From positions 160,001-224,000 of the IMG/VR virus record IMGVR_UViG_3300012642_000011: 64,000 nt of DNA. One strand, written 5' to 3'. Below, piece by piece: positions 10,011-59,765 of this stretch; position 1 is the first letter of the stretch, and each line of letters starts with the position of its first letter. The notes beneath the pieces were generated by a model. The model saw only the letters and a program-made list of their open reading frames with translations, was not told the DNA's origin and did not search any database. A program made the position numbers and the translations under genes. This DNA is from a virus.

Positions 10011-10023
10011 AATCTATAAACTA

Positions 10024-10885: not shown

Positions 10886-10939
10886 TAGAATGTAAAATTA
10901 AAGACATTAAGAATATGTTCGAAGATACTTACGATACAT

Positions 10940-11011: not shown

Positions 11012-11018
11012 CCGCTTC

Positions 11019-12908: not shown

Positions 12909-12946
12909 CACTATTTCCTTTTCCAATTCAAGAGTGTTAGCAATCA

Positions 12947-19738: not shown

Positions 19739-19768
19739 CTCTCAATTTAAGGTATTGGTGATGAAAAG

Positions 19769-20851: not shown

Positions 20852-20915
20852 TAGAATAGAAGAACAAGAACCGGATCAAGAAAATATTCTGATCCAATGA
20901 AACATTGGAGTGCAT

Positions 20916-22397: not shown

Positions 22398-22398
22398 G

Positions 22399-23487: not shown

Positions 23488-23495
23488 GATAATCA

Positions 23496-27536: not shown

Positions 27537-28324
27537 CAAATATAAATATTGAAAAACCCAATAGTTCCATTGAAGGCGTAAACTCCAAAGTGGCACAGGG
27601 AATCTACAGTATGCTCAAAGATAAAGGGAGAAGAAGATTTGGTGTATCAGGAAGTTATATGATGCACCAGTCTGGTTCTGAAGAGTATAAAATTAAAGGC
27701 GTCAAACGTACTATTGCAAAAGAATTCCTCCAAGCAGAAAATGATCTATCAAAATTTCTTTTGGGTTGGGTGAAAGACAAGCCCAATGCTGTCCTGATTG
27801 AATCAGCCCGTGTGCCTGGTGCGGAAAACTCAGAGCCATCTGAAGTTGATGAAGAAAAAGGAATCATTGATGGCATTGACACTGACCACATTGTGATCAT
27901 TGGGGATGAAGTCATACTCATAGACACGACAGCATGGCCTAAAAAGAAGACTTATACCATTGGTGACGAAGGTGAAGTCTTGATGACCAAGAAAACTTTC
28001 GCTTTCTCTGATGTCCCTATGAAAAAGAACATCTACCAATGGTATCATTACCTTGATGAATCTGCATCCTTAATAGGAATTGTATGCATCAACTCCCCTG
28101 AAACCACTGTCATCAGAAACAAGAACTGGTATTTACAAGACTTTAGAGTAGTGGAATTCGGAAGATTTGAAGAGTTATTGAACAAAAAATACGATGAGAT
28201 TGATGATGATGACAGAAACAAAATCAACAGTACATTGGTTGCTCAATGCGTAGTCAGATGCATCAAGCCTTATGATGAGAGAACTAAAGTCATTAACTCC
28301 CGTGGACTATCGGAGTTGAGATGA
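27533..28324 (+). CDS. NERD-domain (nuclease-related, PD-(D/E)xK) protein, paralog 1
   Basis: GIDTDHIVIIGDEVILIDTTAW matches the NERD motif; start overlaps the upstream stop. Confidence 0.55.
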   Translation: MTNINIEKPNSSIEGVNSKVAQGIYSMLKDKGRRRFGVSGSYMMHQSGSEEYKIKGVKRTIAKEFLQAENDLSKFLLGWVKDKPNAVLIESARVPGAENSEPSEVDEEKGIIDGIDTDHIVIIGDEVILIDTTAWPKKKTYTIGDEGEVLMTKKTFAFSDVPMKKNIYQWYHYLDESASLIGIVCINSPETTVIRNKNWYLQDFRVVEFGRFEELLNKKYDEIDDDDRNKINSTLVAQCVVRCIKPYDERTKVINSRGLSELR

Positions 28325-29085
28325 CAGATATAATACAACCTGACAATGAAATCTATGGTGTTAATCCACAAGTAGCAGAAAAAATCCAAGAGATGCTTCA
28401 TAAAGGTAGAAGATACTTCGGGTCTGCAGGTGCATCTCTCACACATCATGTCAACAACCCTGAACACGAATCAGACTTCAGACTTCCTTTAGTGAGAAGC
28501 GGTATGGAAGGAGAAAGATCAACATCTTACTCCATCAGAAAATGGATGGAAGATAAAGATGATGTTGTCCTTATTGATTCAGTTCACATCAAGGGGATGG
28601 GAAAAGAGTACATTGATGAAGAAACTGGTGTTGCTGAAGGCGGAGACACTGATCACGTTCTAATCATAGGAAACAATGTAATCATCATTGATACAAAAAG
28701 ATGGAAATCAAAGAGAAAATACTCTATCAGTAATAAAAACACCGTACTGAGACAGGGCAGATCCTTCGGCGGCGGAAACGTCAGCACAAGAGAGGCAAAG
28801 CACTTATGGAGACAGTATGTTGGAAAGAAAGTGGGAGTATCTGGAATTGTTGTCATCAACCAAGAAAAAATCTTTGTTGTCTATGACAATAACTGGAAGA
28901 AAGCACCATTCCGATTGGTAACGATTGAAAACCTTTATGAAACCCTTGATTTTCAATATGAGCGAATTCAACATAAAGGATTCATTAATTCATCATTGGT
29001 CTCTCAAGTTGTCGTCTGTGCCATCAAGCCATATGACTCAATGAAGAGGGTTTTCGATATGGAGAAAATTAAAGACTTCAAATGA
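28321..29085 (+). CDS. NERD-domain protein, paralog 2
   Basis: GGDTDHVLIIGNNVIIIDTKRWKS; collinear similarity to paralog 1 throughout. Confidence 0.55.
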   Translation: MTDIIQPDNEIYGVNPQVAEKIQEMLHKGRRYFGSAGASLTHHVNNPEHESDFRLPLVRSGMEGERSTSYSIRKWMEDKDDVVLIDSVHIKGMGKEYIDEETGVAEGGDTDHVLIIGNNVIIIDTKRWKSKRKYSISNKNTVLRQGRSFGGGNVSTREAKHLWRQYVGKKVGVSGIVVINQEKIFVVYDNNWKKAPFRLVTIENLYETLDFQYERIQHKGFINSSLVSQVVVCAIKPYDSMKRVFDMEKIKDFK

Positions 29086-42332: not shown

Positions 42333-42438
42333 TGCTCTAAAGTATAATTCTTTAATTATTTATTTCTGATATTTTTGATTGTAACTTTACAATAAAGTTA
42401 TAACTGTTTCCATGGAACTACTAACAGGAATTGATAAC

Positions 42439-42750
42439 ATGAAGAATTTCTTTAACAACATTGAGTCTGTTATCGCTGCATCCAAGGCTCAGGAAGAGCA
42501 GGATCGCGCAGACCTCGTACAGACAATCATCATCATCGCCGGATTCGCAATTGCTGCAATCGCAGTTGTTGGTTGGATCTCAACCGCTCTCTTCGGAATC
42601 GGTGCTGACACTGCTAGGTGCATCACTGGTGTACAGACATATGGCGGATCAGCTGCTACAACACAGGAGAACTGTGAGGCTCAGGGTAACGCTGCGAAAG
42701 CTGATGGTCAAATCACTAATGACGCAGCATACAAAGGCCGCTTTGGCTGA
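42439..42750 (+). CDS. Flp/Tad-type prepilin (fifth paralog, first gene of the Tad-like locus)
   Basis: MKNFFNNIESV...DRA|DLVQTIIIIAGFAIAAIAVVGWISTALFG is homologous to the four tandem paralogs at 8.9-10.8 kb; start set by homology (the ORF track starts at 42412). Confidence 0.6.
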   Translation: MKNFFNNIESVIAASKAQEEQDRADLVQTIIIIAGFAIAAIAVVGWISTALFGIGADTARCITGVQTYGGSAATTQENCEAQGNAAKADGQITNDAAYKGRFG

Positions 42751-42816
42751 TACCAATAAAGGTCAGGGACTGGTTCATCTGATCTGAAGTTTCAGAGACT
42801 CATCTGAAATAAATAA

Positions 42817-42850
42817 GAGAATCCCACTCTATACGGGTGGGATTCTTTTA
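42817..42850 (+). terminator. rho-independent terminator after the pilin gene
   Basis: GAGAATCCCAC-tctatacg-GTGGGATTCTTTT. Confidence 0.65.
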
Positions 42851-42996
42851 TGCCCAATTACCATTGAATTAATTTCTCACAAGAAAACTCTGATCAGAAA
42901 AATAGAAAGAAAACCAGAACGAATCTCTTAGTAAATAAAAGGATATGTTGATATTTCACAACATCAGGATAAGACAAGACAAAAGGACAAAAGACT

Positions 42997-43902
42997 ATGG
43001 ACTACCCTCTCATCATTGGCATACTCGTTGCTCTGATTTTTATCATCATAATGTATGAACTGCTTGTCCCCAAGTCAACTAGAGGACTAGTCTTCCATGA
43101 TGAGAATGCCTTCAATAAGAACCCCATTATGAAAGGATTTGCTGCGTTCGGAAACGAACTCTACACAGCATTACCTGAAGGTGTTCAAGTGGGCAACAAA
43201 GAGCGATACCCTCTCATCGAAGAATTAATTGTCAAATCAGGCAACCCATGGAACATCAACGCAAGAGAATACAAGATGATGCAAATCGTCCTTGCCGTCG
43301 TCGGTGCCATTGTCGGCGTTGCACTCTGGGCATCATTATACTTTGCACAAGGATTAACATGGTTACCATGGTGGGCATGTATTCTCGCCGGTACTGGATT
43401 GGGTTACATCACACCACACTCCAAGTATAAAGAACAAGCCAACCTCAGAGACCTTGAATTCAGAAGGCAACTACCAGAAGCCCTAGACCTTCTCATTATC
43501 ACTGTTGCATCAGGAGCCACAGTAGTCAACGGAATGAAGAACATTCTCCCTGACCTTCAGCCTGGCGTGGTTAAAGAAGAGTTCAAAAACATTGTCACCC
43601 ACGTTGAATCAGGTGGATCATTTGATGCTGCACTAGAAAACCTTGCTCTCAGAGCACCCAATGATGGTGTGGAAACATTCGTCAGGGCGCTTCAGGAAGC
43701 CAACAAGAGAGGATCAGACACTGTGGAGATCCTTGAATCCAGAGCAGAAGAATCCCGAAAAGATTTCTTCACGCTTCTAGAAAAGAAAGTTGCTACACTT
43801 TCCAGTAGGGTATTTATGATCCTCACGCCTACACTTATGCCCGCAGTTATGATTATTGCTATTGCACCATCTGCTGCATCACTTGCCGAGTCCCTTGGAT
43901 GA
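42997..43902 (+). CDS. TadB/TadC-like platform protein (T2SS-F domain)
   Basis: N-terminal TM, soluble GspF-like domain, two C-terminal TM helices; position next to the TadA-like ATPase. Confidence 0.55.
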   Translation: MDYPLIIGILVALIFIIIMYELLVPKSTRGLVFHDENAFNKNPIMKGFAAFGNELYTALPEGVQVGNKERYPLIEELIVKSGNPWNINAREYKMMQIVLAVVGAIVGVALWASLYFAQGLTWLPWWACILAGTGLGYITPHSKYKEQANLRDLEFRRQLPEALDLLIITVASGATVVNGMKNILPDLQPGVVKEEFKNIVTHVESGGSFDAALENLALRAPNDGVETFVRALQEANKRGSDTVEILESRAEESRKDFFTLLEKKVATLSSRVFMILTPTLMPAVMIIAIAPSAASLAESLG

Positions 43903-43913
43903 TTGGAGAAGAA

Positions 43914-46625
43914 ATGAAGAAATCTATTTTTGACCGTAAGAACAATGAAAACGATAGGGACAGAGGAACCATTGGATCACACCATGATGACCCTATGAGC
44001 GAAACCACAGATGCCCCACGACGCACCACTGGACTGCCTACCAACATCAGCAAGGACTTTGTTGAAATGCTCAATGATGATGCCAGTATGAAAGAGGCAT
44101 CAGAGAAAAGAAAGCAAAGAATTCTTTCATCGCATGATAACGATCCTGTAGCAAAGGCCATTCTTGAACAAGAAGGAAGATTAAAAGAGAAGTATGCTAT
44201 GGGAGGCGCAAGAGCAAAAAGAATACTCACTACAGACATCCTCATTGATGCTCCTAAAGATTATTTCACCAAGTACTATGACTTCGTAGCGAAAGCCGTC
44301 AGTGAGGCCAGAGAAGCCATCACGGCTAGAGGATTCTCCGATCACCTTGCTGATGCACTTGACAACCCCGCTGACGAGAAAATACAAGAAGAAACATACA
44401 GGAAGATTGAAGGAATCATTTCTGAGAAAATAGAAAATTCTCCCTTCACATCTACTATTGATACTCTCATCATTAGAACACTTGCCATTAACGATATCAT
44501 GGGATTCGGAATCATTGACCCATTATGGAGAGATAAAGAAGTATCCGAAATCATCATCAATGGACCTTACGATGTGCAAATTGAAAGACACGGAAAACTT
44601 TCTCGTGTGCCAGGTGCTCAATTCATTGACACTGCGCACCTCTATGACCTTATAGAAAAAATCTATAGGACGACAGGTAAAATGCCTTCTGCAACTTCTC
44701 CTCTCGTCAAAGGAAACCTCCCCGACAAGTCACGTGTCTTTGCTGTGGACACTTCAATTGCACCTGCTGGACCCAACCTCAGCATCAGAAAGCACCCTGA
44801 AAGATACTGGACTCCTGAAGATATGGTGAAACTTGGGTCTGCCAGCGAAGAACTCATGACTTACATAGGAAACCTTATTTACAAGGGCGCATCAGTTCTG
44901 GTTGTAGGCGGAACACACTCAGGAAAAGCACTGACACTTGACACTTTGATCAACACCCCACAAGGTCAAATCTCCATGAATGACATCAAAGAAGGAGATC
45001 AGGTCATTGATCATAATGGCATCATCGGAACTGTGCAAGCAAAGTATCCACAGCCTGCACGTCAAGTGTATGCTGTTGTCTTCTCCAATAAGGAAGTCGC
45101 ATTCTGTGATCTTGAGCACAATTGGTATGTCTATGATACTGATGGTCAATCACATGTAATGACCACAGAAGAAATCATTAACAGCGGAATCAGCAACGGT
45201 GAAGGAGAATACAAATTCAGTATACCATCATTGTCTACCCCTGTAGAATATGAATCAGGAATGACTCCTGATGAATTCGCACATCATCCCTACAAGATAG
45301 GCATTTCAGTTGGAAGAAAATGCGCTCTTCCTGACTACTTAAATGACATTGATTCCCCAAACAATAACAAGTACAGGGCAAACCTCGTCCAGCATGGTAT
45401 TATTGAACGCACTGAAAGCATCGAGAAAATAAAGATCAATGCTGACAGGTATGTTGGCCCACACCACATTGAAGACCAATACAAATTCTCCTCTGTGGAA
45501 TCAAGAAGGCACCTTCTTGCAGGATTAATTGACAGCATTGGATACAGCGGCAACTCCACAGGAACATGGAACCTTAAAGTTACCTCTGAAACACTGGCAT
45601 CTGACATTCAATTCATTGCGTCCTCTCTTGGATACATTGTAGAAATCTGCACTGCAAAGAAAGAAAGTTACGTTCAAGAGGGTACACGAGTTGAAGATGT
45701 AGAACTCTGGGAAGTTAAGATCAATTCCTCAGAAACTCTTGGATACAGCCATATATGGGAAACAATGATCGAAGAGATGGACATTGAGCATCAAGCAACC
45801 AATGTCAACATTGTTTCTATTCAACCCGTTGAGGGAAGAGTTGAGGAAATGGCATGCATCACTGTGGACACACCAGAAAACACCTATACTATAGGCAATG
45901 GGTTTACCACTACTCACAACACTACTCTCCTCAATGCATTCACAGGGTTCTATAAGAACACAGTAAGAATTGTCACCATTGAAGATAACATCGAAATGAA
46001 GCCCAACCCCAAGAAAATGTTGGCTCAAGCCATGGAGACAAAACCTGCATCAAGGAGTTCAAGTTCTACACCTGTAGAGATGACAGACTTGGTAAGGGCA
46101 TCTACACAGATGAGACCTGACGTAATCATTGTTGGTGAGGTTACTGACCAAAGCGCCCTTGACCTCATGGAAGTCATGAATACAGGTCACGCCGGAGCAT
46201 CCACTGTCCACGCTAACACTGCAGGCACATCCGTCAACAGAATGATTTCTCTGGCAAAGAAATCACAATTGGTTGACTACCAGGCAGCACTGGATATGTT
46301 TGCACAGGCATTTGACATCATTGTTGTCACACAATATTCCACTGTTGACCATTCAAGAAGGATTGTGAATGTCTCAGAAGTGGGACATAGACCTACAATC
46401 ATTGATGGTATCCCTACAGTTGAAACCTACCCACTATGGAAGTTCGTCAGCAGTGGAAGAGATGCCAATGGAAAGATTCAAGGAGATTGGGTAAAAGTAC
46501 AAGATATATCTGAAAGAAAGAAAGAAGACAAGAACTTGAACATGGAAGAAGATCTCACATGGGAACAATTGAAAGAAATCAGTAGCATCCCAGAAGAGAT
46601 GCAGCCAAAAATCGAAGATGACTGA
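43914..46625 (+). CDS. TadA/CpaF/KlbA-family secretion ATPase interrupted by an intein (aa 344-674) with a LAGLIDADG homing endonuclease
   Basis: Walker A is split: VVGGTHSGK | ALTLDTLINTPQG...LLAGLIDSIGYSG...IGNGFTTTHN | TTLLNAFTGF. The exteins join to GGTHSGKTTLLNAF. The intein starts with Ala and ends HN before Thr. Confidence 0.75.
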   Translation: MKKSIFDRKNNENDRDRGTIGSHHDDPMSETTDAPRRTTGLPTNISKDFVEMLNDDASMKEASEKRKQRILSSHDNDPVAKAILEQEGRLKEKYAMGGARAKRILTTDILIDAPKDYFTKYYDFVAKAVSEAREAITARGFSDHLADALDNPADEKIQEETYRKIEGIISEKIENSPFTSTIDTLIIRTLAINDIMGFGIIDPLWRDKEVSEIIINGPYDVQIERHGKLSRVPGAQFIDTAHLYDLIEKIYRTTGKMPSATSPLVKGNLPDKSRVFAVDTSIAPAGPNLSIRKHPERYWTPEDMVKLGSASEELMTYIGNLIYKGASVLVVGGTHSGKALTLDTLINTPQGQISMNDIKEGDQVIDHNGIIGTVQAKYPQPARQVYAVVFSNKEVAFCDLEHNWYVYDTDGQSHVMTTEEIINSGISNGEGEYKFSIPSLSTPVEYESGMTPDEFAHHPYKIGISVGRKCALPDYLNDIDSPNNNKYRANLVQHGIIERTESIEKIKINADRYVGPHHIEDQYKFSSVESRRHLLAGLIDSIGYSGNSTGTWNLKVTSETLASDIQFIASSLGYIVEICTAKKESYVQEGTRVEDVELWEVKINSSETLGYSHIWETMIEEMDIEHQATNVNIVSIQPVEGRVEEMACITVDTPENTYTIGNGFTTTHNTTLLNAFTGFYKNTVRIVTIEDNIEMKPNPKKMLAQAMETKPASRSSSSTPVEMTDLVRASTQMRPDVIIVGEVTDQSALDLMEVMNTGHAGASTVHANTAGTSVNRMISLAKKSQLVDYQAALDMFAQAFDIIVVTQYSTVDHSRRIVNVSEVGHRPTIIDGIPTVETYPLWKFVSSGRDANGKIQGDWVKVQDISERKKEDKNLNMEEDLTWEQLKEISSIPEEMQPKIEDD
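44928..45920 (+). other. intein coding segment (331 aa, class with Ala1; LAGLIDADG endonuclease) within the TadA-like ATPase P-loop
   Basis: Block A ALTLDTLI, LAGLIDADG-like LLAGLIDSIGY, block F/G ACITVDTPENTYTIGNGFTTTHN; +1 residue Thr. Confidence 0.65.
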
Positions 46626-46634
46626 TGAGAACCA

Positions 46635-46680
46635 AAGGCAGGTTGTCAGCACTAATCGCTGGCAACCTGCCTTTTCGTTG
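46635..46680 (+). terminator. rho-independent terminator after the ATPase gene
   Basis: AAGGCAGGTTGTCAGC...GCTGGCAACCTGCCTT followed by TTCGTTG. Confidence 0.6.
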
Positions 46681-46748
46681 ATATATAAAATGAGTTGATT
46701 TCATCTTGAAATCCCCCAATACGAAAACGAGAAAAGGTTGACAAAGAC

Positions 46749-47711
46749 ATGACATTAGATCAACTATTACCCTACATCATCGCAATTCTTTCAGGATTAC
46801 TGGTGGTCGTAGTAGCCTATGCTGTTCAGAAGTATCTTAGACAAAATTCCCTTGATGAGAACTTTCAAGCACAATTTGAAGCAATCACAAGAGATCCTGT
46901 TGACGCTGCCGATGAAGAACTTCTTCAAAAGGAAAAAGGACTGTCCATATTGGACAGATGGAACAGAGGATGGGACAGGAGTTTTAAAGCAGCAGGATTC
47001 AAGAGGTATGCTGAAGACCCCAATAGAGCTGGAACAGATATGCTCATTCTTTCCCTCATACTCATGGTTGCAGCATCAATCTTTGCCAAGAACATTCTTG
47101 CTGGTGTCTTTGGTGTCGTCATTGGAATGTCCATTGTCGGAATGATGGCAAGAAGCGCAGCCAATAAGAAAATTGCTAGAATTGATGAACAACTCAATGG
47201 ATTCCTTTTCTCATTCAAAGCCAACATTCAATCAGGAATGTCAAATGAAATCTCCTTTATCAACATTGTAGACAAGACAAAAGATCCACTTAAAAGCGAA
47301 CTCATACCTGCTAAAAATGATATCTTGTCCAGCAAAGGATTCGTGACATCCCTCATGAACCTCAGAGCGCACACCCCATCAAAAGATCTTCAGTTCCTTT
47401 GCTCATGTCTTATTCAGGGAACACAAAGCGGATCTGGATTAGAAAACCAGATCGACAAAATCCAAGATGTCATGAAATCAAGACGAGATATCAATAATAA
47501 GATTGAAGTTGCCATGAAGGAACCCCAACCAGCCATCTGGTTGTCCAGCTTCATCCTCCCTGCCCTCTTCATCTACTCCTATACTACAAGCCCACCCGGA
47601 TTTTGGTTCGTCAACCCTTGGTCATGGTTAGCATTGGCAGGCGTTGCAATTCTTTACTTCATTGGCATCTTTGTCATGAGAAAGATGGTGGATAAGATCA
47701 AAAACTTGTGA
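46749..47711 (+). CDS. second TadB/TadC-like platform protein (T2SS-F domain)
   Basis: N-terminal TM, central soluble domain, C-terminal TM pair. Confidence 0.5.
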   Translation: MTLDQLLPYIIAILSGLLVVVVAYAVQKYLRQNSLDENFQAQFEAITRDPVDAADEELLQKEKGLSILDRWNRGWDRSFKAAGFKRYAEDPNRAGTDMLILSLILMVAASIFAKNILAGVFGVVIGMSIVGMMARSAANKKIARIDEQLNGFLFSFKANIQSGMSNEISFINIVDKTKDPLKSELIPAKNDILSSKGFVTSLMNLRAHTPSKDLQFLCSCLIQGTQSGSGLENQIDKIQDVMKSRRDINNKIEVAMKEPQPAIWLSSFILPALFIYSYTTSPPGFWFVNPWSWLALAGVAILYFIGIFVMRKMVDKIKNL

Positions 47712-47758
47712 ATAAAACAGTTGATCATAAACGCCAAAAATCAAAGAAAGAGTAAACA

Positions 47759-48316
47759 ATGAAAACAAAAGAATTCCTTTTCACCATCCCAGCAAAGAAA
47801 ATCATCAACTCAAACCAATCTATTCACTTGATGGTCAAATCACAAAGAAGCGCATACCTGAGAAAGATCTCTCAGGATGCCGGTGCTTACGAGCACACTC
47901 AAAAAGAAGAAGCACAACAGTACTTAGATCGTAACAGGGGATTGCAAGAAAGAAGCAATAAAAAGGGATCAGTTACAAAGAAGATGAAGAAAGCAAACTG
48001 CACACCAGAAGAAATTGCAGAAGCAATGGAAGACATTGATAGGACGTTCCCTATTGTTGATACTCCCTCTGGACTTGAATATGAATTCAAAGGAAGATTT
48101 GAAGCAACCTGTATCATACATACTCCCACCAAAAGACACATAGACCCACCAAACCTATGGCCTACAGTAAAACCCCTCCTTGACGGGCTGACAGACAGTG
48201 GGTGGTGGGAAGACGATGATTCTACCAGATTGGTCAGAACCTCTTTTGAAAGAGGGGAGAACTCAACTTCTAAAGGGGACTACCAAATCACCATTATCAT
48301 CAAAGAAATTTCTTGA
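47759..48316 (+). CDS. RusA-like Holliday-junction resolvase (tentative)
   Basis: RHIDPPNLWPTVKPLLDGLTDSGWWEDDDSTRLV resembles the RusA core D.DN..K...DAL.....DD. Confidence 0.4.
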   Translation: MKTKEFLFTIPAKKIINSNQSIHLMVKSQRSAYLRKISQDAGAYEHTQKEEAQQYLDRNRGLQERSNKKGSVTKKMKKANCTPEEIAEAMEDIDRTFPIVDTPSGLEYEFKGRFEATCIIHTPTKRHIDPPNLWPTVKPLLDGLTDSGWWEDDDSTRLVRTSFERGENSTSKGDYQITIIIKEIS

Positions 48317-48376
48317 TGATATCAATGAAAAGATACTTAACTAAGACGTAAACAAAGAAGCGGAGAGAATGCCACC

Positions 48377-48847
48377 ATGGAAAAGAACTATATTACGGTC
48401 CAAATGTTCACCGATTTCTTCAACAGGAAGAGATCGATGTATGCAATTGGTGACGTTCGCCTTCCTGCACCCATCCCATTGGCATTCATGGGATGGTTCG
48501 TAGGTGGCTTAATAATTTACTCTATACCTCTGTTCCTTTTCATTGGCATAGAGAACATGTCCCTCATCAACCTTGCTATAATTCTTGGCCCACCCATTCT
48601 TTTTGCATCCATTTCGAGCAAACCTATTTTTGGAGGAAGAAGTTTCCTCGGTTTTCTCAAGTATGCTTTCTCTTACATCACATCACCTAAAGGATGGATT
48701 GACACAGAAGGATATTACAGTAAAGAGGAAGGCAATTATGTAGTCAATTCATACATCTGGATCAGCCGAAGAAGAGAATTCTATCGACTTGCCGAACTTG
48801 AAGATGAGGAAAAAAGAGCTAAAAAGAAAGATCAATCTAATTCATAA
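48377..48847 (+). CDS. membrane protein, hypothetical
   Basis: Two or three TM helices, basic C-terminus. Confidence 0.45.
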   Translation: MEKNYITVQMFTDFFNRKRSMYAIGDVRLPAPIPLAFMGWFVGGLIIYSIPLFLFIGIENMSLINLAIILGPPILFASISSKPIFGGRSFLGFLKYAFSYITSPKGWIDTEGYYSKEEGNYVVNSYIWISRRREFYRLAELEDEEKRAKKKDQSNS

Positions 48848-48914
48848 TACACTGAATCATAAATAAAAATTCTATTAAATAAAATTATTTTTCCCCAGTT
48901 AAGGAGAGATTATC

Positions 48915-50111
48915 ATGACAGTAAAATCTACCAGCCTACTCATAGGACAGACAAGCAGAGGCGTAAGGAACCCCGTCCCCTTTGACTTACACACCCCCAT
49001 AAGGAACAATCAACCACCGGGATGTGTCATCACCGGAAAACCAGGATCGGGAAAGACATACCTCCTACAATTGCTCACAACCATGTCAGCGCTGCTTGGT
49101 AAAACAACTATCGTTATTGACCTTAAAGGCGACTTCCTCAACCTGAAGCCTATTGCTGACGAAATCGGAGTAGATGCAAGATTCATTGACATTGCGAAAA
49201 AGAAAGGCGCTCTAGACCCCTTCTACATCGGAGAAAACCCAGGAGACAAACTCAGCCTTATTCTTCAAGTCATTGATACACTTGTTGGTGGCATCACACG
49301 AGATGAATCCACACTGCTCACACCAGAAATCCGAGACCTCATCCAAGCCAGTGAAAATAAAAGAAACCAGATATCACTAACCAATGTTGTCAGCAACCTC
49401 CTAAGATCCACACATAAGGATCTTGTGAACATTGGATCAGAATTAGAATCCATCAGCACACTACCCTATGCTAATCTTCTCTTTGCACCAGGTGGCGGAG
49501 CAAAAAGCAAAATTAATTACTATAAAGGTCTAACCATCTTCCCACTTATAGGACTCAAACTTCCTAACGAAGAGGACTTTGATGAAAATAATTCAAGGAG
49601 ATCAGGCGCTTCAACAAACATCAACGAAAACCTCTCATCAGCAATCATGCTCATGCTCACAGAAGTTGTTTCAAGACTCATGATGAGAGAAACGCCAGAA
49701 CCAAAGACACTGGTCATCGATGAGGCATGGGTATTGGCATCAAACAAATCAGGACAGGAATGTATTAAGAAAATCGCACTTCTAGGAAGAAGCAAGAATA
49801 TTGCTCTCGTCATGGGATCACAGAAGAACTCCCACTACAGTAATTTCGACATTGATGTGACAATCTCCACGAGATTCTGCTTCAAAACAAGTATCAAAGA
49901 AGCAGAAATGCTTGTTAAAGAAATGCAACTACCTGAAGAAGAAGGTTTTGAAAACAACCTCACAGAACTCCAAACAGGAGAATGTCTCATGATGGACTGG
50001 AAAGGAAACTACTCCACAGTACAAATCAAAACCATTAAATCATCATGGCATTACTACTTCAGAAGCGACCCACAAAAGGACGCCGCAATAAGAAGATCCA
50101 AAGGAAAATAA
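48915..50111 (+). CDS. P-loop NTPase of the HerA/FtsK/VirB4 (DUF87-like) clade
   Basis: Walker A GKPGSGKTYLL near the N-terminus; Walker B LVIDEAWVL about 250 aa downstream; arrangement typical of VirB4/HerA-type ATPases. Confidence 0.5.
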   Translation: MTVKSTSLLIGQTSRGVRNPVPFDLHTPIRNNQPPGCVITGKPGSGKTYLLQLLTTMSALLGKTTIVIDLKGDFLNLKPIADEIGVDARFIDIAKKKGALDPFYIGENPGDKLSLILQVIDTLVGGITRDESTLLTPEIRDLIQASENKRNQISLTNVVSNLLRSTHKDLVNIGSELESISTLPYANLLFAPGGGAKSKINYYKGLTIFPLIGLKLPNEEDFDENNSRRSGASTNINENLSSAIMLMLTEVVSRLMMRETPEPKTLVIDEAWVLASNKSGQECIKKIALLGRSKNIALVMGSQKNSHYSNFDIDVTISTRFCFKTSIKEAEMLVKEMQLPEEEGFENNLTELQTGECLMMDWKGNYSTVQIKTIKSSWHYYFRSDPQKDAAIRRSKGK

Positions 50112-50164
50112 TATGATATTGATTTCATAATGTCTGCTTCACAATACATTCAAAAGGATAAAAA

Positions 50165-51139
50165 ATGAAAAATAAACTCGGCACGAAAAGCGCCAACACA
50201 AACCTCATTATATGGATCGTCGTCCTTCTCATTGCGCTGGCAATCATGTTCCTCGTCGCACTTGTCATGAGGAACGCCACAGAAACAGACCAGTTCTACG
50301 TACTGAACACACCAGTGGCAGCAAAGAGTCAGATCACACCAGAAATGCTTGAACCAATGAACGCAGTCAAAGACCAAGCACCACCTAATGCTCTCGACAT
50401 TGGTGACATTCAAGCAGGTGGAATCTACGCTCAATACCCACTGAACAAGGGTGACATTGTCTCAGGATCAAACGTATCAGGATTCACAGATATCTCAACA
50501 GGAATCCCAGATAACTGGGTTGTCACCAACTTCGCAGTAAGCCCAGACAACGCTGTTGGCGGTAGAATCACCCGAGGCACATACTTCGACATCATGGCAT
50601 ACGATAAAGACAAGGGAGCATACTACCCCTTCGTCAACGTACTTGCACTTGACACCACTGTATCCACCAACAGCCTCTCCAGCGCACAAGCAATTGACAG
50701 CCCAGAGGCACAAGACGGACAGACACAACAATACTACGTTGGCATGTCACCTCAAGATGCAGGAAAACTTCAAGCACTCATGTCATCAGGAGACCAGATC
50801 AAACTTGTCCTCTCCCCACGACAGAATGAGTACCAGAACCCTGACCTCAACGCTTACAAGGGATTCTTCAAGTACGAGAATGACAAGGGTGAAGCCATCT
50901 GGCCAGGTAAGTCTGCAGGAGGAGAAATCACAGACTACACCTTCTCAAAGGTCGAAAGAGATGAATTCGGAAGGCCCCTACAAGGACCAGACGCTGGTAG
51001 CATAGGAAACGCTGGAATCCCAGCAAACGGAAACTCAACCGCGCCAACAGAGGACGCTCCTGAGGAATCCGCAAGCCCATCAGCATCTGAATCCACACCT
51101 ACTGAAAGCGCAAGCCCATCAGCAAGCCCCACAAGTTGA
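50165..51139 (+). CDS. CpaB/RcpC-like Flp pilus assembly protein (SAF domain) with Ser/Pro/Ala-rich C-terminal tail
   Basis: N-terminal TM anchor, SAF-like region (QITPEMLEPMNAVKDQAPPNALDIGDIQ), low-complexity ESASPSASESTPTESASPSASPTS tail. Confidence 0.5.
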   Translation: MKNKLGTKSANTNLIIWIVVLLIALAIMFLVALVMRNATETDQFYVLNTPVAAKSQITPEMLEPMNAVKDQAPPNALDIGDIQAGGIYAQYPLNKGDIVSGSNVSGFTDISTGIPDNWVVTNFAVSPDNAVGGRITRGTYFDIMAYDKDKGAYYPFVNVLALDTTVSTNSLSSAQAIDSPEAQDGQTQQYYVGMSPQDAGKLQALMSSGDQIKLVLSPRQNEYQNPDLNAYKGFFKYENDKGEAIWPGKSAGGEITDYTFSKVERDEFGRPLQGPDAGSIGNAGIPANGNSTAPTEDAPEESASPSASESTPTESASPSASPTS

Positions 51140-51156
51140 TAGGGAATAAGTAAAAT

Positions 51157-51190
51157 AGGCGGGATGCTCATGTCCCGCCTATTTTGTTGC
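51157..51190 (+). terminator. rho-independent terminator
   Basis: AGGCGGGA-tgctcatg-TCCCGCCT followed by ATTTTGTTG. Confidence 0.65.
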
Positions 51191-51398
51191 TTCTAAACTG
51201 AACGAATATGCTAAAATCATCATAATACAACTCTTGATATGAATCATTGGATAGCAAATAAAAACACACATAAATTAAGAACAAGACATTTAAAATAAAT
51301 ACAGTCAAGGATTCAAGCAAGAAATCACTGGACTCAAAAGAAAGAACAGATATTCACTTATAGTAAAACTGTTCGATGTAAAGACGAGAGGGAGAGGC

Positions 51399-52775
51399 AT
51401 GGTTAACAAGCCCAAAGCAGTATATATAGGACCACCTAAGATCGGTGCTGCAATTATGAAAAGAGTGACAGAATGGTCATTCGTTTACGCAGACTCCACC
51501 ATACAAGGGTTCACAGACAAACTGGACAATGATGAGATCGACAACGACATACAATGTATTCTCATCCACGATTCCCTCTACGTGCCCACAGCAGACAACT
51601 CTCCACAGCCATTCAACGTGTTTGCAGCACAGTACTCACCCTACTGCTTCTTCGGCATTCTAGAGTACCATGAGAACTACACACCAAGGATCAAGGAAGG
51701 CGTCTCATCCATCCTCAGCAACATGACAGGAGAAGATGAAACAGACCTTTACTTCATCTCAAAAGAAAACTTCAAACCAAGGCTCATCTCCAAAGTAGAA
51801 AGCTACATCTCCAAGCACGATAATGAAGTTGCCGCAATACTTGCAGGAAGAGAACCACAAAACATTGTTGACGAAGAAATCGAAACACGAAAAAGAGAAA
51901 TCGAAGACAACAATCACAGGATCGAAGAAGCCAAGTCCAAGTACCAATCAGGAGACCGTGACGGAAAAATCATTGCCTGCACCTCATCCAAGGGAGGATC
52001 AGGAAAATCAACCATCACACTTCTACTTGCAACCTACCTTGCTCATTCATCCATCCAATCTGTCAAAGACGGAGCAGAAAAAGAACCTCTCAAAATCTGC
52101 GTACTCGACCTTGACACCAAGGACGGGCAAATAGGATTCATCACAGGTGCTGTCAAGCCAACCATTACACATCTACAACGACATGGCATCACCAAAGAGA
52201 CAGTTGAACAAACTGCCATCTTCAACGACAGGCTCAAGGTTGACCTCTTCCTTGCTCCACAACGACTGCAAACAGCATTAGAGATCGAAGCAGGATTCTA
52301 CCAAGAACTCATAGCATTCCTGAGAACACAGTATGATTACGTCATCCTCGACACCTCAGTGAACTACTACGACCCCCTCCTTGGACAAGTCGCCTACCCC
52401 ATGGCAGACTTCATCATTTTCGTCACAGACATCGTGATCAACTCCATCTTCTCCATGAGCAGATGGATCACCAACGTCACCATGCCCATTGAGCGAAAAG
52501 GACTCGGAATCCCCAAAAGGAAAATCGGTATCATCATCAACAAAGCATCTACTGGTGTAAACATGCCACCAGAAAGAATCAGCAGCTTTGCAAATGGTGT
52601 CAGAATCATCACCGCAATCCCATCACAAGCCAAACTAATGGCAAACGCAGCCAACACTCAATCAATGGACCAAGCACTCAGAGACCCAACCATTAGAAAA
52701 CGAATAAGGAAGATCGCACAAGGCGTAGCAGGAAGAAACTACAAACTTGCCGAAAACTTCGCCATTGGTAGATAA
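51399..52775 (+). CDS. CpaE/TadZ-like ParA/MinD-family ATPase
   Basis: Deviant Walker A IIACTSSKGGSGKSTITLLLA with an N-terminal receiver-like region, as in CpaE/TadZ. Confidence 0.6.
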   Translation: MVNKPKAVYIGPPKIGAAIMKRVTEWSFVYADSTIQGFTDKLDNDEIDNDIQCILIHDSLYVPTADNSPQPFNVFAAQYSPYCFFGILEYHENYTPRIKEGVSSILSNMTGEDETDLYFISKENFKPRLISKVESYISKHDNEVAAILAGREPQNIVDEEIETRKREIEDNNHRIEEAKSKYQSGDRDGKIIACTSSKGGSGKSTITLLLATYLAHSSIQSVKDGAEKEPLKICVLDLDTKDGQIGFITGAVKPTITHLQRHGITKETVEQTAIFNDRLKVDLFLAPQRLQTALEIEAGFYQELIAFLRTQYDYVILDTSVNYYDPLLGQVAYPMADFIIFVTDIVINSIFSMSRWITNVTMPIERKGLGIPKRKIGIIINKASTGVNMPPERISSFANGVRIITAIPSQAKLMANAANTQSMDQALRDPTIRKRIRKIAQGVAGRNYKLAENFAIGR

Positions 52776-54488: not shown

Positions 54489-56540
54489 TCAAATCTTCCA
54501 CAAATCATTCCCCTTGAAAACACCATCCTCAGTAATCACAGGAACAATAGAAATCTTCCTCTTCTGAAAAAGATTAATCGTAGCCTTCTTAGCAATAGAC
54601 TCAAGCTTCATAGCAGCACCACGTGAATGACACACCCACACAACCTTACTATAAATCCTCTCATCATCAGCATAAGCCCTCAACGTTCGCTCATAACTAG
54701 CAGCATCCTTATTAGCAATCTCCACCTCAACAGCAATAGAACGCGGAGAACCATCAGCAGCACGAGGACGTGCAATCACAAGATCAGGAACATGATAAGA
54801 AGAACGCGTCGCCCTCTGCCTAGGCAACAAAGTCCACATAAACTCATTACCCGGCATCATCTCAGGAGAAGGAATTCTAGCACGATCAGAATGAGACAAC
54901 CACGTTTTAAAATCCGCATCCATCCTATTCATGATCTTCGGACGAAAATCATCAGCAACCTCAGTACCCCTCAACCTCGTCAAAGAAGACTGAATCTGCA
55001 ACTCCGAAACCAAATTCTCACCAGAAACACGATTACCACTCACATCAATCCTGTTATCAGAAGGAAAATCATTCAAATACAACACATTCAAACCACCACT
55101 CCACAAATGAGCAGCAACATGATTCGTAGTAAACGTATGATTAAACATAGAATACGTCACACCACTCTTCAACGTCCTCTTCACATCAAGACCAGTCAAC
55201 AACATACCAGCCTCAGTCAAATACCACACACTACCAACATGATAAATCTTCTGCCTCGTCACCAAACCCTGCTTCAACAATTTACCCATTCTCAAATTAG
55301 TCTGATTCTGCTTCGTATTCACCAAAATAGAAATATTCCTCGTCGTAGCATACTTAAACATAGCCAAAAATCTCAAAACCTCAAGATCCTTCGCATTCAC
55401 ACCAGGCAACATCCTACCCTTCTTAAAAGCATCCTCACCCTCAACAATCTGCTCCAACACCCGCACAGCCCGCACACCAGAACCATCCCTCTCCAAAGCC
55501 TTCTGAGCAAACCCCCTCACATCAGGATCATTACGCAACTTATTCACAGAAGAATTCAACCTCTTAAAAAAGTCCACCTCCTGCTCAGCCAACCTCATTC
55601 TAGAACCATCAGAACGCTTCCTACGCACCCTCTTCTGAGCACCAAAAATAATCTCCGTCTCACCATCACCAGAACCAGAATCATCCTCAACAACCATCTC
55701 AAAAGCATCCCTCGACCTAAACTCAGTCTGAGAATCCTGCACGCCAACCTTCTTATGATCATCCGACACAACAACATTAGACTCTAAGAAATCATCCCGA
55801 CGAGCACTCTTCCTACTACTCTTCTTCCTCTTCTCAGTAGCAGACCTCCTAAACTCATCCAACTCCTCACGATGCACCCTAGCCTGAGGAGTCTCAGGAA
55901 CATCCTCCGACAACACATCAGCCAACACATCACGATCCACACCAATAGCAGAATCACCACTAGGATCAGAAACAGCATCAACACCAGAAACAGAAGCATC
56001 AGAAGAAATCACATCAGTAAACTCTTCATCATCCTCATCCTCAAGGAAAAAATCAGACTCCCCATCATCAGAATCATCCTCATCCTCAACAACCAAATCA
56101 GAAGACCCACCAACAACATCATCAACACTTCCCTGACCAGAAGAAACACCCACTGAATCATCAACGCCAACCAAAGCAGACCCCATAGGCAAAGAAGGCA
56201 ACGCATCACCAGAATCAGAAGAAATCACATCAGTAAACTCTTCATCATCCTCATCCTCAAGAAAGAAATCAGACTCCACATCATCAGAATCGGAAATCAA
56301 ATCACCCTCAAAATCAAAATCATCCTCATCAAAATCCTCCCCCAAAGATTCACGCATACGAGCAATCTCCTGACGCATCAAAGCATCCTGCTGCATACGA
56401 TTCTTCTCCATCTCAGCCCTCAACTGATCAGGAGTCAACACAACCTCATCATCCTCAAAAAAGAAATCAGACTCCCCATCCACAGAATCATAATCCGAAT
56501 CACCAAAAGAAGACATACCCCTAGGAATCATCACAATCAC
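54489..56540 (-). CDS. large acidic repeat protein with a C-terminal globular domain (possible wHTH + PD-(D/E)xK-like)
   Basis: Repeated DFFLEDEDDEEFTDVISSD modules; the C-terminal 330 aa is non-repetitive with ...VPDLVIARP...IAVEVEIANKD. Confidence 0.55.
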   Translation of the reverse strand: MIVMIPRGMSSFGDSDYDSVDGESDFFFEDDEVVLTPDQLRAEMEKNRMQQDALMRQEIARMRESLGEDFDEDDFDFEGDLISDSDDVESDFFLEDEDDEEFTDVISSDSGDALPSLPMGSALVGVDDSVGVSSGQGSVDDVVGGSSDLVVEDEDDSDDGESDFFLEDEDDEEFTDVISSDASVSGVDAVSDPSGDSAIGVDRDVLADVLSEDVPETPQARVHREELDEFRRSATEKRKKSSRKSARRDDFLESNVVVSDDHKKVGVQDSQTEFRSRDAFEMVVEDDSGSGDGETEIIFGAQKRVRRKRSDGSRMRLAEQEVDFFKRLNSSVNKLRNDPDVRGFAQKALERDGSGVRAVRVLEQIVEGEDAFKKGRMLPGVNAKDLEVLRFLAMFKYATTRNISILVNTKQNQTNLRMGKLLKQGLVTRQKIYHVGSVWYLTEAGMLLTGLDVKRTLKSGVTYSMFNHTFTTNHVAAHLWSGGLNVLYLNDFPSDNRIDVSGNRVSGENLVSELQIQSSLTRLRGTEVADDFRPKIMNRMDADFKTWLSHSDRARIPSPEMMPGNEFMWTLLPRQRATRSSYHVPDLVIARPRAADGSPRSIAVEVEIANKDAASYERTLRAYADDERIYSKVVWVCHSRGAAMKLESIAKKATINLFQKRKISIVPVITEDGVFKGNDLWKI

Positions 56541-56544
56541 ACCT

Positions 56545-58040
56545 CACACTAGAATCCCATATACATATAAGATCACAACAATCAACCCTGAACAAAAACA
56601 ATCCCAACAGAAAAATCCAAGATCACGTAATTGAACAGATCAATGTATTGTAACAAAAATAAACCTACCACAACGCAAAAATATACAGCGCAAACTCCAC
56701 ACCACCAACCAAAACAACACCCTCACACAACCACACCACAATACCCAAAACAGACCATCCTATACTTTAAAATAAATAAATAAAAACAGCCAACAACGCA
56801 CACTCAAGCCAACAAACCCACAACCAACATCCAAAGCACCACAATAGACAAACACCACCTACTACACCAAACCATTAAAACAATCAGTACTAAGAACACC
56901 CACACAACAATAAACTTCATAAGCACACCACAACAACCAACAACACTCAAAGACACAAGAACACAAGCACACAAGACAACCAAGCACACAAAAGAAATAC
57001 ACCAGCAGCGCACATAACCTGAGCATAGACATCAAAGCCAAACCACGATTACAAAAACACAAATCAACCCAAAGCCACGCACACACAAAACAAAAATGTA
57101 TAAATTAAAACCTAAAATCAAACATTCAAAACACCAAAACAACGCACACCAAGACTACAAAGAACACAAACAAGCGCCCAAAACCGCCAGTATAAAATCC
57201 CACAACACACAACGTGCTATACAAACCAACCCAACACAAGCACACAAAACAAACTCTTCTACACTATAAAACTACACAACCCAACCTCAATCACGCAACA
57301 CAGTCATCACAATCAAAGCCCAAAAACAAACCTCAAAGACTCCACAGCCCAACCTAAAAACCATATAACCTAAACCAAAAACAACACAACTGAACCTAAA
57401 ACTTTACAACAAGACACTACACAGACAGAAAAATAACTCATTAAAACCTTAAAACCAATCACCACAAATTTTAAACCCAAGCATCACAAACTCCAAAATG
57501 ATGCAACACAAACCTTAAACCAAGTATTAAAAACCGCATGGCACAAAATACAAACTTTAAAATCATGCCTCACAAACTTTAAAATCGCGCCTTACAAAAC
57601 CGCACCACACATATTACAAACTTTAAAACCACGCAACAGAAGACAAAACAACCACGATACAAATACATACTACAGAACACAAACACAGTCAAACCAACAC
57701 TGCAAACACACCCAAACCAATACTTTCAAACATTCAAATCAACTTCGCCAAACACCTAAACTAACACCGCCAAACAATCAACACCAATACCCAAACAACA
57801 CCCTAAAACAAAAAACAAACACTCCAAAATAAAAATCAACAATGAAAACACTACTACACCAACAATGAAAACGCTACTACTACAACCAGAAATAAATCAA
57901 AATTATCAACACCCTGTGCAAAACATGATTCCCAACCCAAAAACCCCAATAACAACACTAAAAAATAGGAAAAAATAGAAACCATTCGAAAACGAATATA
58001 AAAATAGAAACCAGGGTACAAACCAGGTTTTACTGTCAAA
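56545..58040. repeat. 1.5-kb G-depleted A/C-rich non-coding tract with embedded 22-23-nt periodic ACAAACTTTAAAAYC repeats (57455-57640)
   Basis: The + strand is almost entirely A and C with no ORF of 60 aa or more. ACAAACTTTAAAATC occurs at 57550, 57572 and 57616, with related units upstream. Confidence 0.8.
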
Positions 58041-58041
58041 A

Positions 58042-58063
58042 GATTTCAGAAGCTTCTGAAATC
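58042..58063. promoter_or_regulatory. 22-bp perfect palindrome GATTTCAGAAGCTTCTGAAATC
   Basis: Exact inverted repeat centred on AAGCTT at the junction between the A/C tract and the DnaA-box cluster. Confidence 0.6.
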
Positions 58064-58126
58064 CTTTGTATCAAAAATCATAATTATCAACAATCCCGCT
58101 CCCGCCACACCCAGAACTACTTCTTC

Positions 58127-58178
58127 TGTGGATAACTAAACAACGAATGTGGATAAGAATACTTCTACATGTGGACAA
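58127..58178. promoter_or_regulatory. cluster of three same-orientation DnaA boxes (TGTGGATAA x2, TGTGGACAA) at 21-22-bp spacing; candidate origin of replication
   Basis: TGTGGATAA at 58127 and 58148 is the reverse complement of the consensus DnaA box TTATCCACA; TGTGGACAA at 58170; a TTATCAACA variant sits at 58084. The cluster lies at the A/C to G/T strand-composition switch. Confidence 0.55.
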
Positions 58179-58399
58179 GATGTTAACACTACAACTACAA
58201 CAAACATATATACAAATACAACGACAACAAACACACCTACCACAACTACGAATACCACCACCACGAACACGATCACAGTTAACACGATGAAGACCCTCAC
58301 AGCCTTCATCACAACCAGTACACACGCTCACGCGAACACCCCCACGCGCTCAGTACACGATCTCACGATCATCACCAACCAGCACACGCTCAAGGAACA

Positions 58400-59450
58400 G
58401 TGACCTGTACATGCTGACATGGGAAGGGGTGTGCGCATACTCTTGAGAGGCATGATCACCATGGCATCGAACAGCACCCATGGGAGGGAAGGGGTGTGCG
58501 CACATGGTTGCAAGGTCAGCGTAAGAGGACAATGGTCACGTTGATCTCATGGGGTAACGGGTGTGCGCATATAGTTGGTCTGATGGCAGGGGTCACCACG
58601 TAGGTAAAGAACTCGTGAGAGGTATAAGTCAATGCGTGGTGTTGCTCGTGAGAGAGGTACTGAGTGATGACGCGTGAGCGTGGGGATGGGTGTGCGCATA
58701 CAGTTGATGGGGAGAGTTGATCGGAGAATCTCACCTCGTGGGTAAAGTAATCATGAGGAGGAGAGAACGGGTGTGCGCACACTGTTGTGAGCAGTAGGTC
58801 AGAGAAATAAAGTGGGACTATGATGAGGTAGGTTCCTCGTGAGAGGTCATCATCTGAAGAAGGGGAATCATGAGGGGGATAGTTTCCGTAGAGAACCTAA
58901 AGGGAACTCATGACGCGTGAGCGTTGATCATCACGTTGGTACAGGGGAGCAGAGCGGGTACTCATGAGGGGAACTGGGTACTCACGATGGTTGACTGTTG
59001 GAGGGTACTGATGGTTGCGGGGAGAGATCATGGAGCAGGAGAGATCATCATGAGGCAGGGAGATCACGGTGGAACAGGGAGATCACATGGTGGGCGGAGA
59101 GCGTGGAGATCAGAGCGGGGGAACTCATGGGTCAGTTGGTGGTTGGGGAGCGAGGGGAACTCATGGTATGGGAGGCTACTGTTGAGAGCGAGGGAGGTCA
59201 TGGTGGGAGCAGGAGAGGTCATGGTGGTTGCTGTTGGGAGCGGGAGCAGGGGAGGAGAGTGTGATGGGGAGATGATGATGGCTGAGGGGGAGGTGAGGAG
59301 AGGGTACTGTTGGGAGCAGGGGTGAGGGCGAGGAAGAGCATGATGGCTAGGTGAGGAGGCTGTGTGAGGTTGGGGAGGAGAGGGTGCTGGGGAGAGCGCG
59401 TGAGCGTGTGACGGGGGAGGTTGTTGGTGACGGCGCTGCGCGGGCGGTGT
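58400..59450. repeat. C-poor G-rich degenerate tandem-repeat region with five GGGTGTGCGCAYA motifs (58424-58790) and GGTCATGGTGG / ACTCATGAGG-type repeats
   Basis: GGGTGTGCGCA at 58428, 58491, 58559, 58690 and 58771; downstream many variants of GAGATCATGG, GGTCATGGTGG, GGGAGCAGG; no credible ORF. Confidence 0.7.
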
Positions 59451-59765
59451 CGTAGGTTTTTATTTTTTTGAGGGGGCTGCGCTCGCGGTGGGGGAGGTTT
59501 TTTAGGGACACAGTTTGGGGAGAGGAAATAATTTCATGGGGAGAGTAATAATTCTGGTCATGGTAGTGTATGCTGGTGTGGTGTTTTATTTCTTAGGGTG
59601 TGCTGTCGCCGTGGTCAGGTTGGAGTGTGCTGTGGGTTTGTGTTGTGTCGGCGGGGTAGTGAATTCGTGAGTTGACTTTTATTGTTCTCTGTGTGAGCAT
59701 GTTCTCTGTGTGAGCGTGGGAGATATAATTCGGTTGTTGTTGCAGTGTAGTGTTTGTAATGTGGT

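Follow-up and report, generated by a model that had tools for sequence, protein, structure and literature searches.

The stretch of DNA analyzed here, hereafter the window, comprises the 64,000 nucleotides at positions 160,001 to 224,000 of the IMG/VR virus record IMGVR_UViG_3300012642_000011. On its plus strand it carries a gene for a T2SSE/CpaF-like ATPase whose Walker A motif (P-loop) is interrupted by a 331-residue insert. The gene was delimited from the list of open reading frames (ORFs), its translation and Pfam matches. An alternative start at 43914, taken as the first codon in an earlier interpretation made from the letters alone (hereafter the sequence-only reading), corresponds to Met6 in the same frame and has GGAG 7 nucleotides upstream. 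The precursor is organized as follows:

43899..46625, plus strand: precursor gene, T2SSE/CpaF-like ATPase with intein, 908 amino acids (aa) and stop
43899..44927, plus strand: N-extein, 343 aa; its last residues, GGTHSGK (44907-44927), form the first part of Walker A
44928..45920, plus strand: intein, 331 aa, Ala1 to Asn331 (precursor aa 344-674); its removal restores GGTHSGKTTLLNAF
45921..46625, plus strand: C-extein, 234 aa and stop; Thr+1 (45921-45923) is the Walker A Thr
45975-45995, plus strand: Asp box TIEDNIE, in the C-extein
46119-46148, plus strand: Walker B motif DVIIVGEVTD, in the C-extein
46179-46217, plus strand: His box NTGHAGASTVHAN, in the C-extein

An intein in the Walker A motif of a secretion ATPase

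The junctions read ...VVGGTHSGK / ALTLDT...FTTTHN / TTLLNAF..., placing the insert exactly between the Walker A Lys and Thr. The translation thus agrees with the sequence-only reading, which had described a 331-aa insert between GGTHSGK and TTLLNAF that opens with Ala and closes with His-Asn (His330-Asn331) before Thr+1. The N-extein closes with ...VLVVGGTHSGK, and the C-extein opens with TTLLNAFTGFYK right after the intein. In the precursor, the Pfam family T2SSE (PF00437) is matched in two separated stretches (100 bits, E = 1.4e-28); once the insert is removed in silico, the P-loop is restored, as had been proposed, and a single unbroken T2SSE match spans profile positions 6-264 (113 bits). 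The comparison with homologues that the same reading had recommended found 17 ATPases in which GGTxxGKT(S/T)xL is unbroken and no insert is present.

Several independent comparisons identified the insert. Pfam Hom_end (PF05204) was detected at intein aa 189-254 with 27.6 bits against a cut-off of 21.1 (E = 3.4e-6), and a PDB sequence search with the insert matched inteins at E = 1.7e-6. An AlphaFold2 model of the insert reached a predicted local distance difference test score (pLDDT) of 85.4 and a predicted template modelling score of 0.84. When this model was compared with the PDB by Foldseek, the top match was PI-SceI (E = 7.8e-14, TMq 0.65), ahead of other inteins with an endonuclease, and more than 40 intein structures with the HINT fold were matched at probability 1.00; among mini-inteins, the best was the class 3 intein Msm DnaBi1 (6bs8, TMt 0.87), followed by MchDnaB-1. 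The insert is thereby confirmed as an intein with a HINT fold, its exact in-frame insertion being far beyond chance, and the earlier proposal of an intein with a LAGLIDADG-type domain holds for the fold and for the Hom_end match. The lack of HINT similarity that would have refuted the sequence-only reading does not apply.

The host was likewise recognized correctly as a TadA/CpaF-family (T2SSE) ATPase interrupted within Walker A, a placement supported by Pfam and by the match to CpaF. Walker A, Asp box, Walker B and His box are all intact. Among 21 homologues, G337, G338, G342 and K343 of the N-extein are invariant, as are T675, E695, D696, E699, G746, E747, H764 and H771 of the C-extein, and the His-box consensus of the family is LNTGHxGASTxHAN. 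The closest solved structure to the spliced extein is CpaF (E = 4.4e-48, over 340 residues). Caulobacter CpaF, the Tad-pilus motor (PDB 8rkd/9e24), has the same four motifs; the window ATPase is about 31% identical to plasmid or chromosomal CpaF and, unlike it, has a long and poorly conserved N-terminal extension. No equivalog assignment was obtained, as NCBIfam scores for TadA (TIGR03819), VirB11, TrbB and FlaI are far under their cut-offs (e.g., 161.5 against 373), and therefore assignment of the ATPase at family level alone is justified.

Class 3 signature, endonuclease domain and proposed splicing

Class 3 inteins, as described by Tori et al. (PMC2807308), have a non-nucleophilic residue 1, a co-varying Trp/Cys/Thr (WCT) triplet and Thr or Ser at +1, and are found mostly in ATPase P-loops; the triplet occupies block B position 12 (Trp), block F position 4 (Cys) and block G position 5 (Thr). 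Msm DnaBi1, a class 3 intein located in the DnaB P-loop, carries the triplet Trp67/Cys118/Thr137 and a block B DxxH motif (Asp62, His65), and its Ser+1 doubles as a Mg-binding residue (Kelley et al., PMC6195587). The window intein contains the following corresponding elements, where A1 denotes an alignment of 13 inteins (the window's and 12 related inserts, 24-54% identical to it):

44928..44966, plus strand: block A ALTLDTLINTPQG; Ala1, not a nucleophile; aligns with ALALDTPLPTPSG of Msm DnaBi1
45108..45125, plus strand: block B D61-L-E-H64-N-W66 (DxxH and class 3 Trp); H64 and W66 invariant, aligning with H65 and W67 of Msm DnaBi1
45282..45320, plus strand: remnant of the first LAGLIDADG motif, HHPYKIGISVGRK; catalytic Asp replaced by Arg130, where A1 relatives read IHPYLLGLWLGDG
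45513..45551, plus strand: second LAGLIDADG motif, LLAGLIDSIGYSG; catalytic Asp replaced by Ile204, where A1 relatives read GLIDSDG
45843..45893, plus strand: block F EEMACITVDTPENTYTI, holding Cys310, the predicted initiating nucleophile; invariant, aligning with catalytic Cys118 of Msm DnaBi1
45894..45920, plus strand: block G GNGFTTTHN, with Thr329 (class 3 Thr), His330 and Asn331, all invariant

The insert has no Cys, Ser or Thr at position 1, and it has the WCT triplet (W66, C310, T329) and Thr+1. In A1, H64, W66, C310, T329, H330 and N331 are invariant. Residue 1 varies among homologues (A, E, M, L, D, N and, in a few, S) and the block F Cys stays constant, as would be expected if residue 1 is not catalytic. 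Thr occupies +1 in the window and in 12/12 intein-bearing homologues examined. The best matches of the PDB sequence search are again the mycobacterial class 3 DnaB inteins. Both ends of the alignment keep the register (ALTLDT...CDLEHNW against ALALDT...ADAQHQW; EMACITVDTPENTYTIGNGFTTTHN against PVRCVEVDNPEHLYLAGPGMVPTHN), so that Ala1, His64, Trp66, Cys310, Thr329, His330 and Asn331 align with Ala1, His65, Trp67, Cys118, Thr137, His138 and Asn139 of Msm DnaBi1.

The same features recur in known class 3 inteins. Msm DnaBi1, MchDnaB-1 (6rix) and the prototype from the DnaB protein of mycobacteriophage Bethlehem share Ala1 (Pro1 in the prototype), DxxH-x-Trp, the block F Cys, Thr-His-Asn and Ser/Thr+1. 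Like the window intein, the mycobacterial DnaB inteins lie between the Walker A Lys and Ser/Thr, with the +1 nucleophile being the Mg-binding residue of the P-loop. They differ in residing in a replicative helicase rather than a T2SSE/CpaF-like secretion ATPase, and their identity to the window intein is low, the blocks alone aligning; Msm DnaBi1 is a mini-intein, whereas the window intein retains a degenerate LAGLIDADG domain. Of the same architecture is the intein in the DnaB-like helicase of Enterococcus phage vB_EfaM_Ef2.1 (MK693030), which occupies the same GK/T site, reads PTGGGK/ALVDSEP...DEHIW...MTCISV...VATHN/TT and is about 28% identical to the window's over the whole intein including the endonuclease domain, although its extein differs and it keeps both catalytic Asp residues (LIGALLGDG, LLAGLIDTDG). 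Class 3 inteins of phage terminase large subunits also share the architecture and the GK/T P-loop site, and related class 3 inteins were found at GK/S or GK/T in terminases (P0028, P0035), a helicase (P0032) and VirB4-like ATPases (P0033, P0036).

A word-indexed homologue search with the window intein alone gave no match at E<=1e-5, and an exhaustive profile search with the intein family yielded 27,367 cluster representatives at E<=1e-3. Among the best hits of the latter, 154 were full-length matches: 141 contain HxW, the block F Cys and THN, 142 end in THN, 107 have Ala as their first residue and 73 come directly after 'GK', and the +1 residue is Thr in 83 and Ser in 64. Judged by its sequence, the window intein is an ordinary member of a large class 3 family. 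Many of the best family matches (P0038-P0061) are 1,100-2,200 aa long and contain, in a single protein, two to five separate class 3 inteins; some of their inserts follow non-P-loop junctions (...GE/A, ...PK/A, ...QY/P). A second intein of the same family was sought in the window, and none was found.

The endonuclease domain presents a different picture. The domain match and two LAGLIDADG helices (residues 121-132 and 190-204 in the model) are present, and the motif LLAGLIDSIGYSG pointed out in the sequence-only reading does occur at intein aa 196-208. The acidic catalytic residues are nonetheless lost, with GRK (R130) in place of GDG and SIG (I204) in place of SDG. The segment after motif 1 is deleted, leaving about 130 residues fewer than in full-size relatives and removing the first half of the beta-saddle; after helix 1 the model shows short low-confidence helices (pLDDT 49-64) and no strands, and the second half keeps strand-helix-strand. 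PI-SceI, the yeast VMA1 intein, and other PF05204 inteins likewise consist of a HINT domain with an inserted Hom_end-type LAGLIDADG domain. PI-SceI belongs to class 1 (Cys1), and its active site contains Asp218 and Asp326; in the window intein, both equivalent Asp residues are lost and the domain is truncated. Full-size relatives (P0004-6, P0009 and L021; 367-462 aa) keep both motifs (IHPYLLGLWLGDG and GLIDSDG), the closest relatives (P0002, P0003) show the same losses with the catalytic Asp replaced (R/M/Y and I across the window and both), and P0007, P0008 and P0021 represent other decay stages, down to 260 aa. The LAGLIDADG endonuclease, which had been named as part of the insert, is thus probably dead: the replaced residues and the model suggest an inactive enzyme with an incomplete two-fold beta-saddle.

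Taken together, these data make it highly probable that the window encodes a class 3 intein in the Walker A motif of a CpaF/TadA-like secretion or pilus ATPase, that its LAGLIDADG domain has decayed, and that the ATPase matures by class 3 splicing. The unspliced precursor would be an inactive ATPase because its Walker A motif is split and the P-loop cannot form. Splicing is predicted to begin with an attack on the Lys343-Ala344 bond by Cys310, which His64, Thr329 and Trp66 would activate and near which Asp61 lies; this attack would give a thioester-linked block F branched intermediate. The N-extein would next be transferred to the hydroxyl of Thr+1, the Walker A threonine itself; cyclization of Asn331, helped by His330, would free the intein, and an O-to-N acyl shift would produce GGTHSGKTTLLNAF and an active ATPase. 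The intein is probably no longer mobile because its catalytic aspartates and half of the DNA-binding saddle are lost, and it would be kept by vertical inheritance with the gene.

Relatives, evolution and competing explanations

An intein occupies the same GK/T site in at least 20 related metagenomic ATPases, and many relatives lack it. Of the T2SSE ATPases interrupted here, 12 came from the first homologue search; IMG/VR provided two further intein-bearing loci (L021 and L022), with L020 carrying the same intein as P0006, and the best 150 matches of the profile search included at least 7 more intein-bearing ATPases, some in distant T2SSE subfamilies. Searches of 72,556 plasmid and 50,697 phage records gave matches in 3,901 plasmid and 431 phage records, none with an intein in this gene and none with a place covering >=80% of the query, and megablast of the gene likewise found nothing among phage or plasmid records. 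Scans of IMG/VR and GTDB genomes with a single protein were also negative. An alignment-based GTDB search recovered only intein-less T2SSE genes, 31-38% identical, in metagenome-assembled genomes of Clostridia and Acidobacteriota.

The DNA of the window gene was compared with that of its two nearest relatives. Synonymous sites are saturated, with a proportion of synonymous differences (pS) of about 0.8, and the nonsynonymous proportion (pN) is therefore given against pS in place of dN/dS. The pN values are 0.19-0.28 for the splicing domain, 0.37-0.43 for the endonuclease region and 0.19-0.33 for the exteins; by these values, all parts are under purifying selection and the endonuclease region is the least constrained. 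Across the 12 intein-bearing ATPases, pairwise identities of the splicing domain and of the exteins correlate (r=0.85), and alleles with and without the intein alternate in an extein tree. This pattern suits an intein that has long occupied the site, was repeatedly and precisely lost and perhaps homed locally; it does not suit a recent arrival from archaea.

The sequence-only reading had assigned the insert to the KlbA type, at the same P-loop position as the archaeal KlbA inteins, and had suggested horizontal transfer. On this account, a class 2 intein from archaea would occupy the same site as KlbA, and Thr+1 would attack the N-terminal junction directly, with no internal nucleophile. Ala1, and hence the lack of an N-terminal nucleophile, is indeed shared with the Mja KlbA intein (class 2; PDB 2jmz/2jnq), as is a host of the T2SSE/VirB11 superfamily. 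The archaeal bias and the unusual host context that had been remarked upon also accord with a 2016 survey (PMC4760082), which lists T2SSE-family inteins (VirB11 21, CpaF 5) for Archaea only. Class 2 or KlbA-like inteins, however, have neither an N-terminal nucleophile nor the triplet and rely on direct attack by Cys+1 (PMC2807308), whereas the window intein has an invariant WCT triplet and Thr at +1. In the Mja KlbA sequence used (100% identical to 2jmz residues 8-174), the triplet positions hold Val, Asp147 (block F position 4) and Val, and the nucleophile is Cys+1. It is a mini-intein of 168 aa, located in NTGHDG/C, with no detectable sequence relationship to the window's: hhalign between the window intein family and the Mja KlbA intein gave a probability of 0.8% with the alignment out of register, and the KlbA intein is absent from the PDB sequence matches and from the top 50 fold matches of the window intein. 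A word-indexed homologue search with the KlbA intein, aimed at MJ0781 and its insertion site, returned one irrelevant 194-aa match alone.

The insertion sites differ as well. PDB queries extended into the extein flanks show that the 2jmz precursor chain reads NTGHDG/ALAYDE...FAVS[A]/[S]SGTLH, and the NTGH...T.H flanks correspond to the T2SSE His box; this placement assumes native flanks in the nuclear magnetic resonance construct, an assumption that their His-box match supports. Going by these sequences, the KlbA intein and the window intein share a host superfamily, but the former interrupts the His box rather than Walker A. The equivalent window site, NTGHAG/ASTVHAN (46179-46217), is unbroken and is found 92 extein residues downstream of where the window insert lies. 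As for an archaeal source, the closest relatives are class 3 inteins in phage terminase and helicase P-loops, and intein divergence follows that of the host ATPase. We therefore hold a KlbA-type intein at this site to be extremely unlikely.

Two other explanations accept a class 3 intein, or its remains, and differ on what is still active. One supposes that the homing endonuclease works and that the intein is spreading among intein-less ATPase alleles. The interleaving of intein-bearing and intein-free alleles, the full-size domains of 440-462 aa with GDG and SDG motifs in P0004-6, P0009 and L021, and a region that is not evolving neutrally would all suit such mobility, yet in the window, P0002 and P0003 both catalytic Asp residues are replaced, about 130 residues including the first beta-saddle half are gone, and the model gives disordered helices in place of the expected strands; an active enzyme here is accordingly judged unlikely. 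The other supposes that splicing has ceased altogether, leaving either a pseudogene or a protein that works with the insert as a permanent domain. Apart from the evident decay of the endonuclease part, the observations run against it: the splicing residues are intact and invariant, although the exteins of the relatives are 32-90% identical; the ORF is intact, and the identical protein and the 99%-identical P0001 occur on 8 metagenome contigs from different samples; pN is far under pS in intein and exteins; and 331 residues between Lys and Thr preclude a P-loop, yet the other ATPase motifs are conserved. A dead insert is thus very improbable.

It is also conceivable, though distinctly unlikely, that the intein serves as a redox- or metal-sensitive switch acting through Cys310, which would hold the only Tad-like motor of the element inactive until splicing. 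The analogue is the mycobacterial class 3 DnaB intein, shown to splice conditionally. Cys60 adjoins the block B Asp in the window clade, and Cys48, the redox partner in Msm DnaBi1, is replaced by Val in the window intein. Long co-divergence with the host and retention after endonuclease decay would fit selective retention as such a switch.

Some points weigh against the preferred interpretation, a class 3 intein that splices and carries a decayed endonuclease. A WCT motif grafted alone does not yield a class 3 intein (PMC7664689), and the signature read from the residues would accordingly be necessary, not sufficient, for the class. What was observed directly is which residues are present, how conserved they are, the fold, and the recovery of the host motif once the insert is removed; from these we infer, by analogy, the splicing chemistry, the block F branched intermediate and the inactivity of the endonuclease. 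Some LAGLIDADG enzymes tolerate unusual active-site residues. Moreover, the endonuclease region is still constrained (pN 0.37-0.43 against pS of about 0.8) and may keep a structural or other role.

Replicon context and significance

The intein gene is surrounded by a Tad-like pilus/secretion module (42412-52775), which comprises:

42412-42750: small Flp-like ORF
42997-43902: T2SSF (TadB/C-like), upstream of the ATPase gene
46749-47711: T2SSF (TadB/C-like), downstream of the ATPase gene
between the T2SSF gene at 46749-47711 and TcpE in the module order: RusA
48377-48847: TcpE
48915-50111: AAA_10/VirB4-like ATPase
51399-52775: ParA/CpaE-like protein

The presence of TcpE and of the VirB4-like AAA_10 ATPase distinguishes these neighbours from those of CpaF. 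The module order is kept on a 681-kb Joint Genome Institute contig (L001, 8459-20347), and relatives at 36-45% identity lie on contigs of 117-420 kb filed as viral by IMG/VR. The IMG/VR record UViG_3300031088_000782 (309.5 kb) seems to cover one part of the 681-kb contig, and its 'viral' filing may thus be partial. The replicon is a very large uncultivated mobile element, either a huge phage or giant plasmid-like, which IMG/VR files as viral. The window ORFs that were scanned include neither a capsid nor a terminase gene. As candidates for its identity, the giant oral plasmid-like 'Inocle' elements were ruled out by their guanine-plus-cytosine (GC) content (24-32% against about 42% here), and the 'Jug' jumbo gut phages were considered, their paper mentioning no secretion or pilus genes.

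The window also encodes tRNAs, a transfer-messenger RNA (tmRNA), a signal recognition particle (SRP) RNA, a phage-like split DnaE, GyrA, RadA and a CCA-adding enzyme. DnaE, the DNA polymerase III alpha subunit (20910-26183), is encoded by two ORFs, the break falling exactly at the palm motif (...FERFL / ...PPDIDSDF):

20910-22397: DnaE N piece, with the PHP domain and the first third of PF07733; its 52-aa tail is unrelated to DnaE
22360-23487: clamp-loader gene, between the DnaE pieces
23496-26183: DnaE C piece, the rest of DnaE, with an 18-aa head

A split intein was considered for DnaE and rejected, as the fragment ends have no His-Asn or nucleophile junction. The tmRNA (19395-19741, 107 bits) has the tag ANSAKNDFALAA, and the small SRP RNA (6297-6383, 40.4 bits) scores just at the Rfam threshold. 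Seven tRNAs lie at 2822-11013, of which one is called with a four-base anticodon (2822-2898) and another (3138-3221) fits the tRNA-Sec model yet has a GCA anticodon. Adjoining the tRNA cluster, a 524-aa ORF (798-2372) has a Cas12f1-like TNB domain, whose sequence indicates a TnpB/Cas12f-like, transposon-associated nuclease. There are also two NERD-domain nuclease-like ORFs (16915-17994 and 28321-29085), and a NadR-like ORF (cytidylyltransferase and AAA_28; 11799-13031, minus strand) in an otherwise plus-strand block. Finally, a region of about 3 kb (56540-59600) has no ORF longer than 90 aa and shows an extreme composition flip, its GC skew being -0.6 to -0.75 (CA-rich) until about 58300 and then +0.4 to +0.7 (G-rich); five copies of the motif GGGTGTGCGCA(C/T)A occur at 58421-58787. 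Possible identities of this region are a replication origin, a terminus or a site of strand switching.

With the T2SSE secretion/pilus ATPase, carried here by a bacterial or phage-type element, class 3 P-loop inteins gain a host gene that is new to the curated record; the kind of element itself was already known, and current understanding of inteins is not overturned by these findings. Gene callers and annotators will report a 908-aa ATPase with a split domain, and the functional product should be 577 aa. For classification, Ala1 and a KlbA-like ATPase host do not by themselves make an intein KlbA-type: the class is decided by the block F Cys, the block B Trp and the block G Thr, and the true KlbA site is the His box. 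Furthermore, the relatives form an endonuclease decay series at one insertion site, in which length falls from 462 aa, with the motifs intact, to 260 aa; such a series is useful for understanding the intein life cycle.

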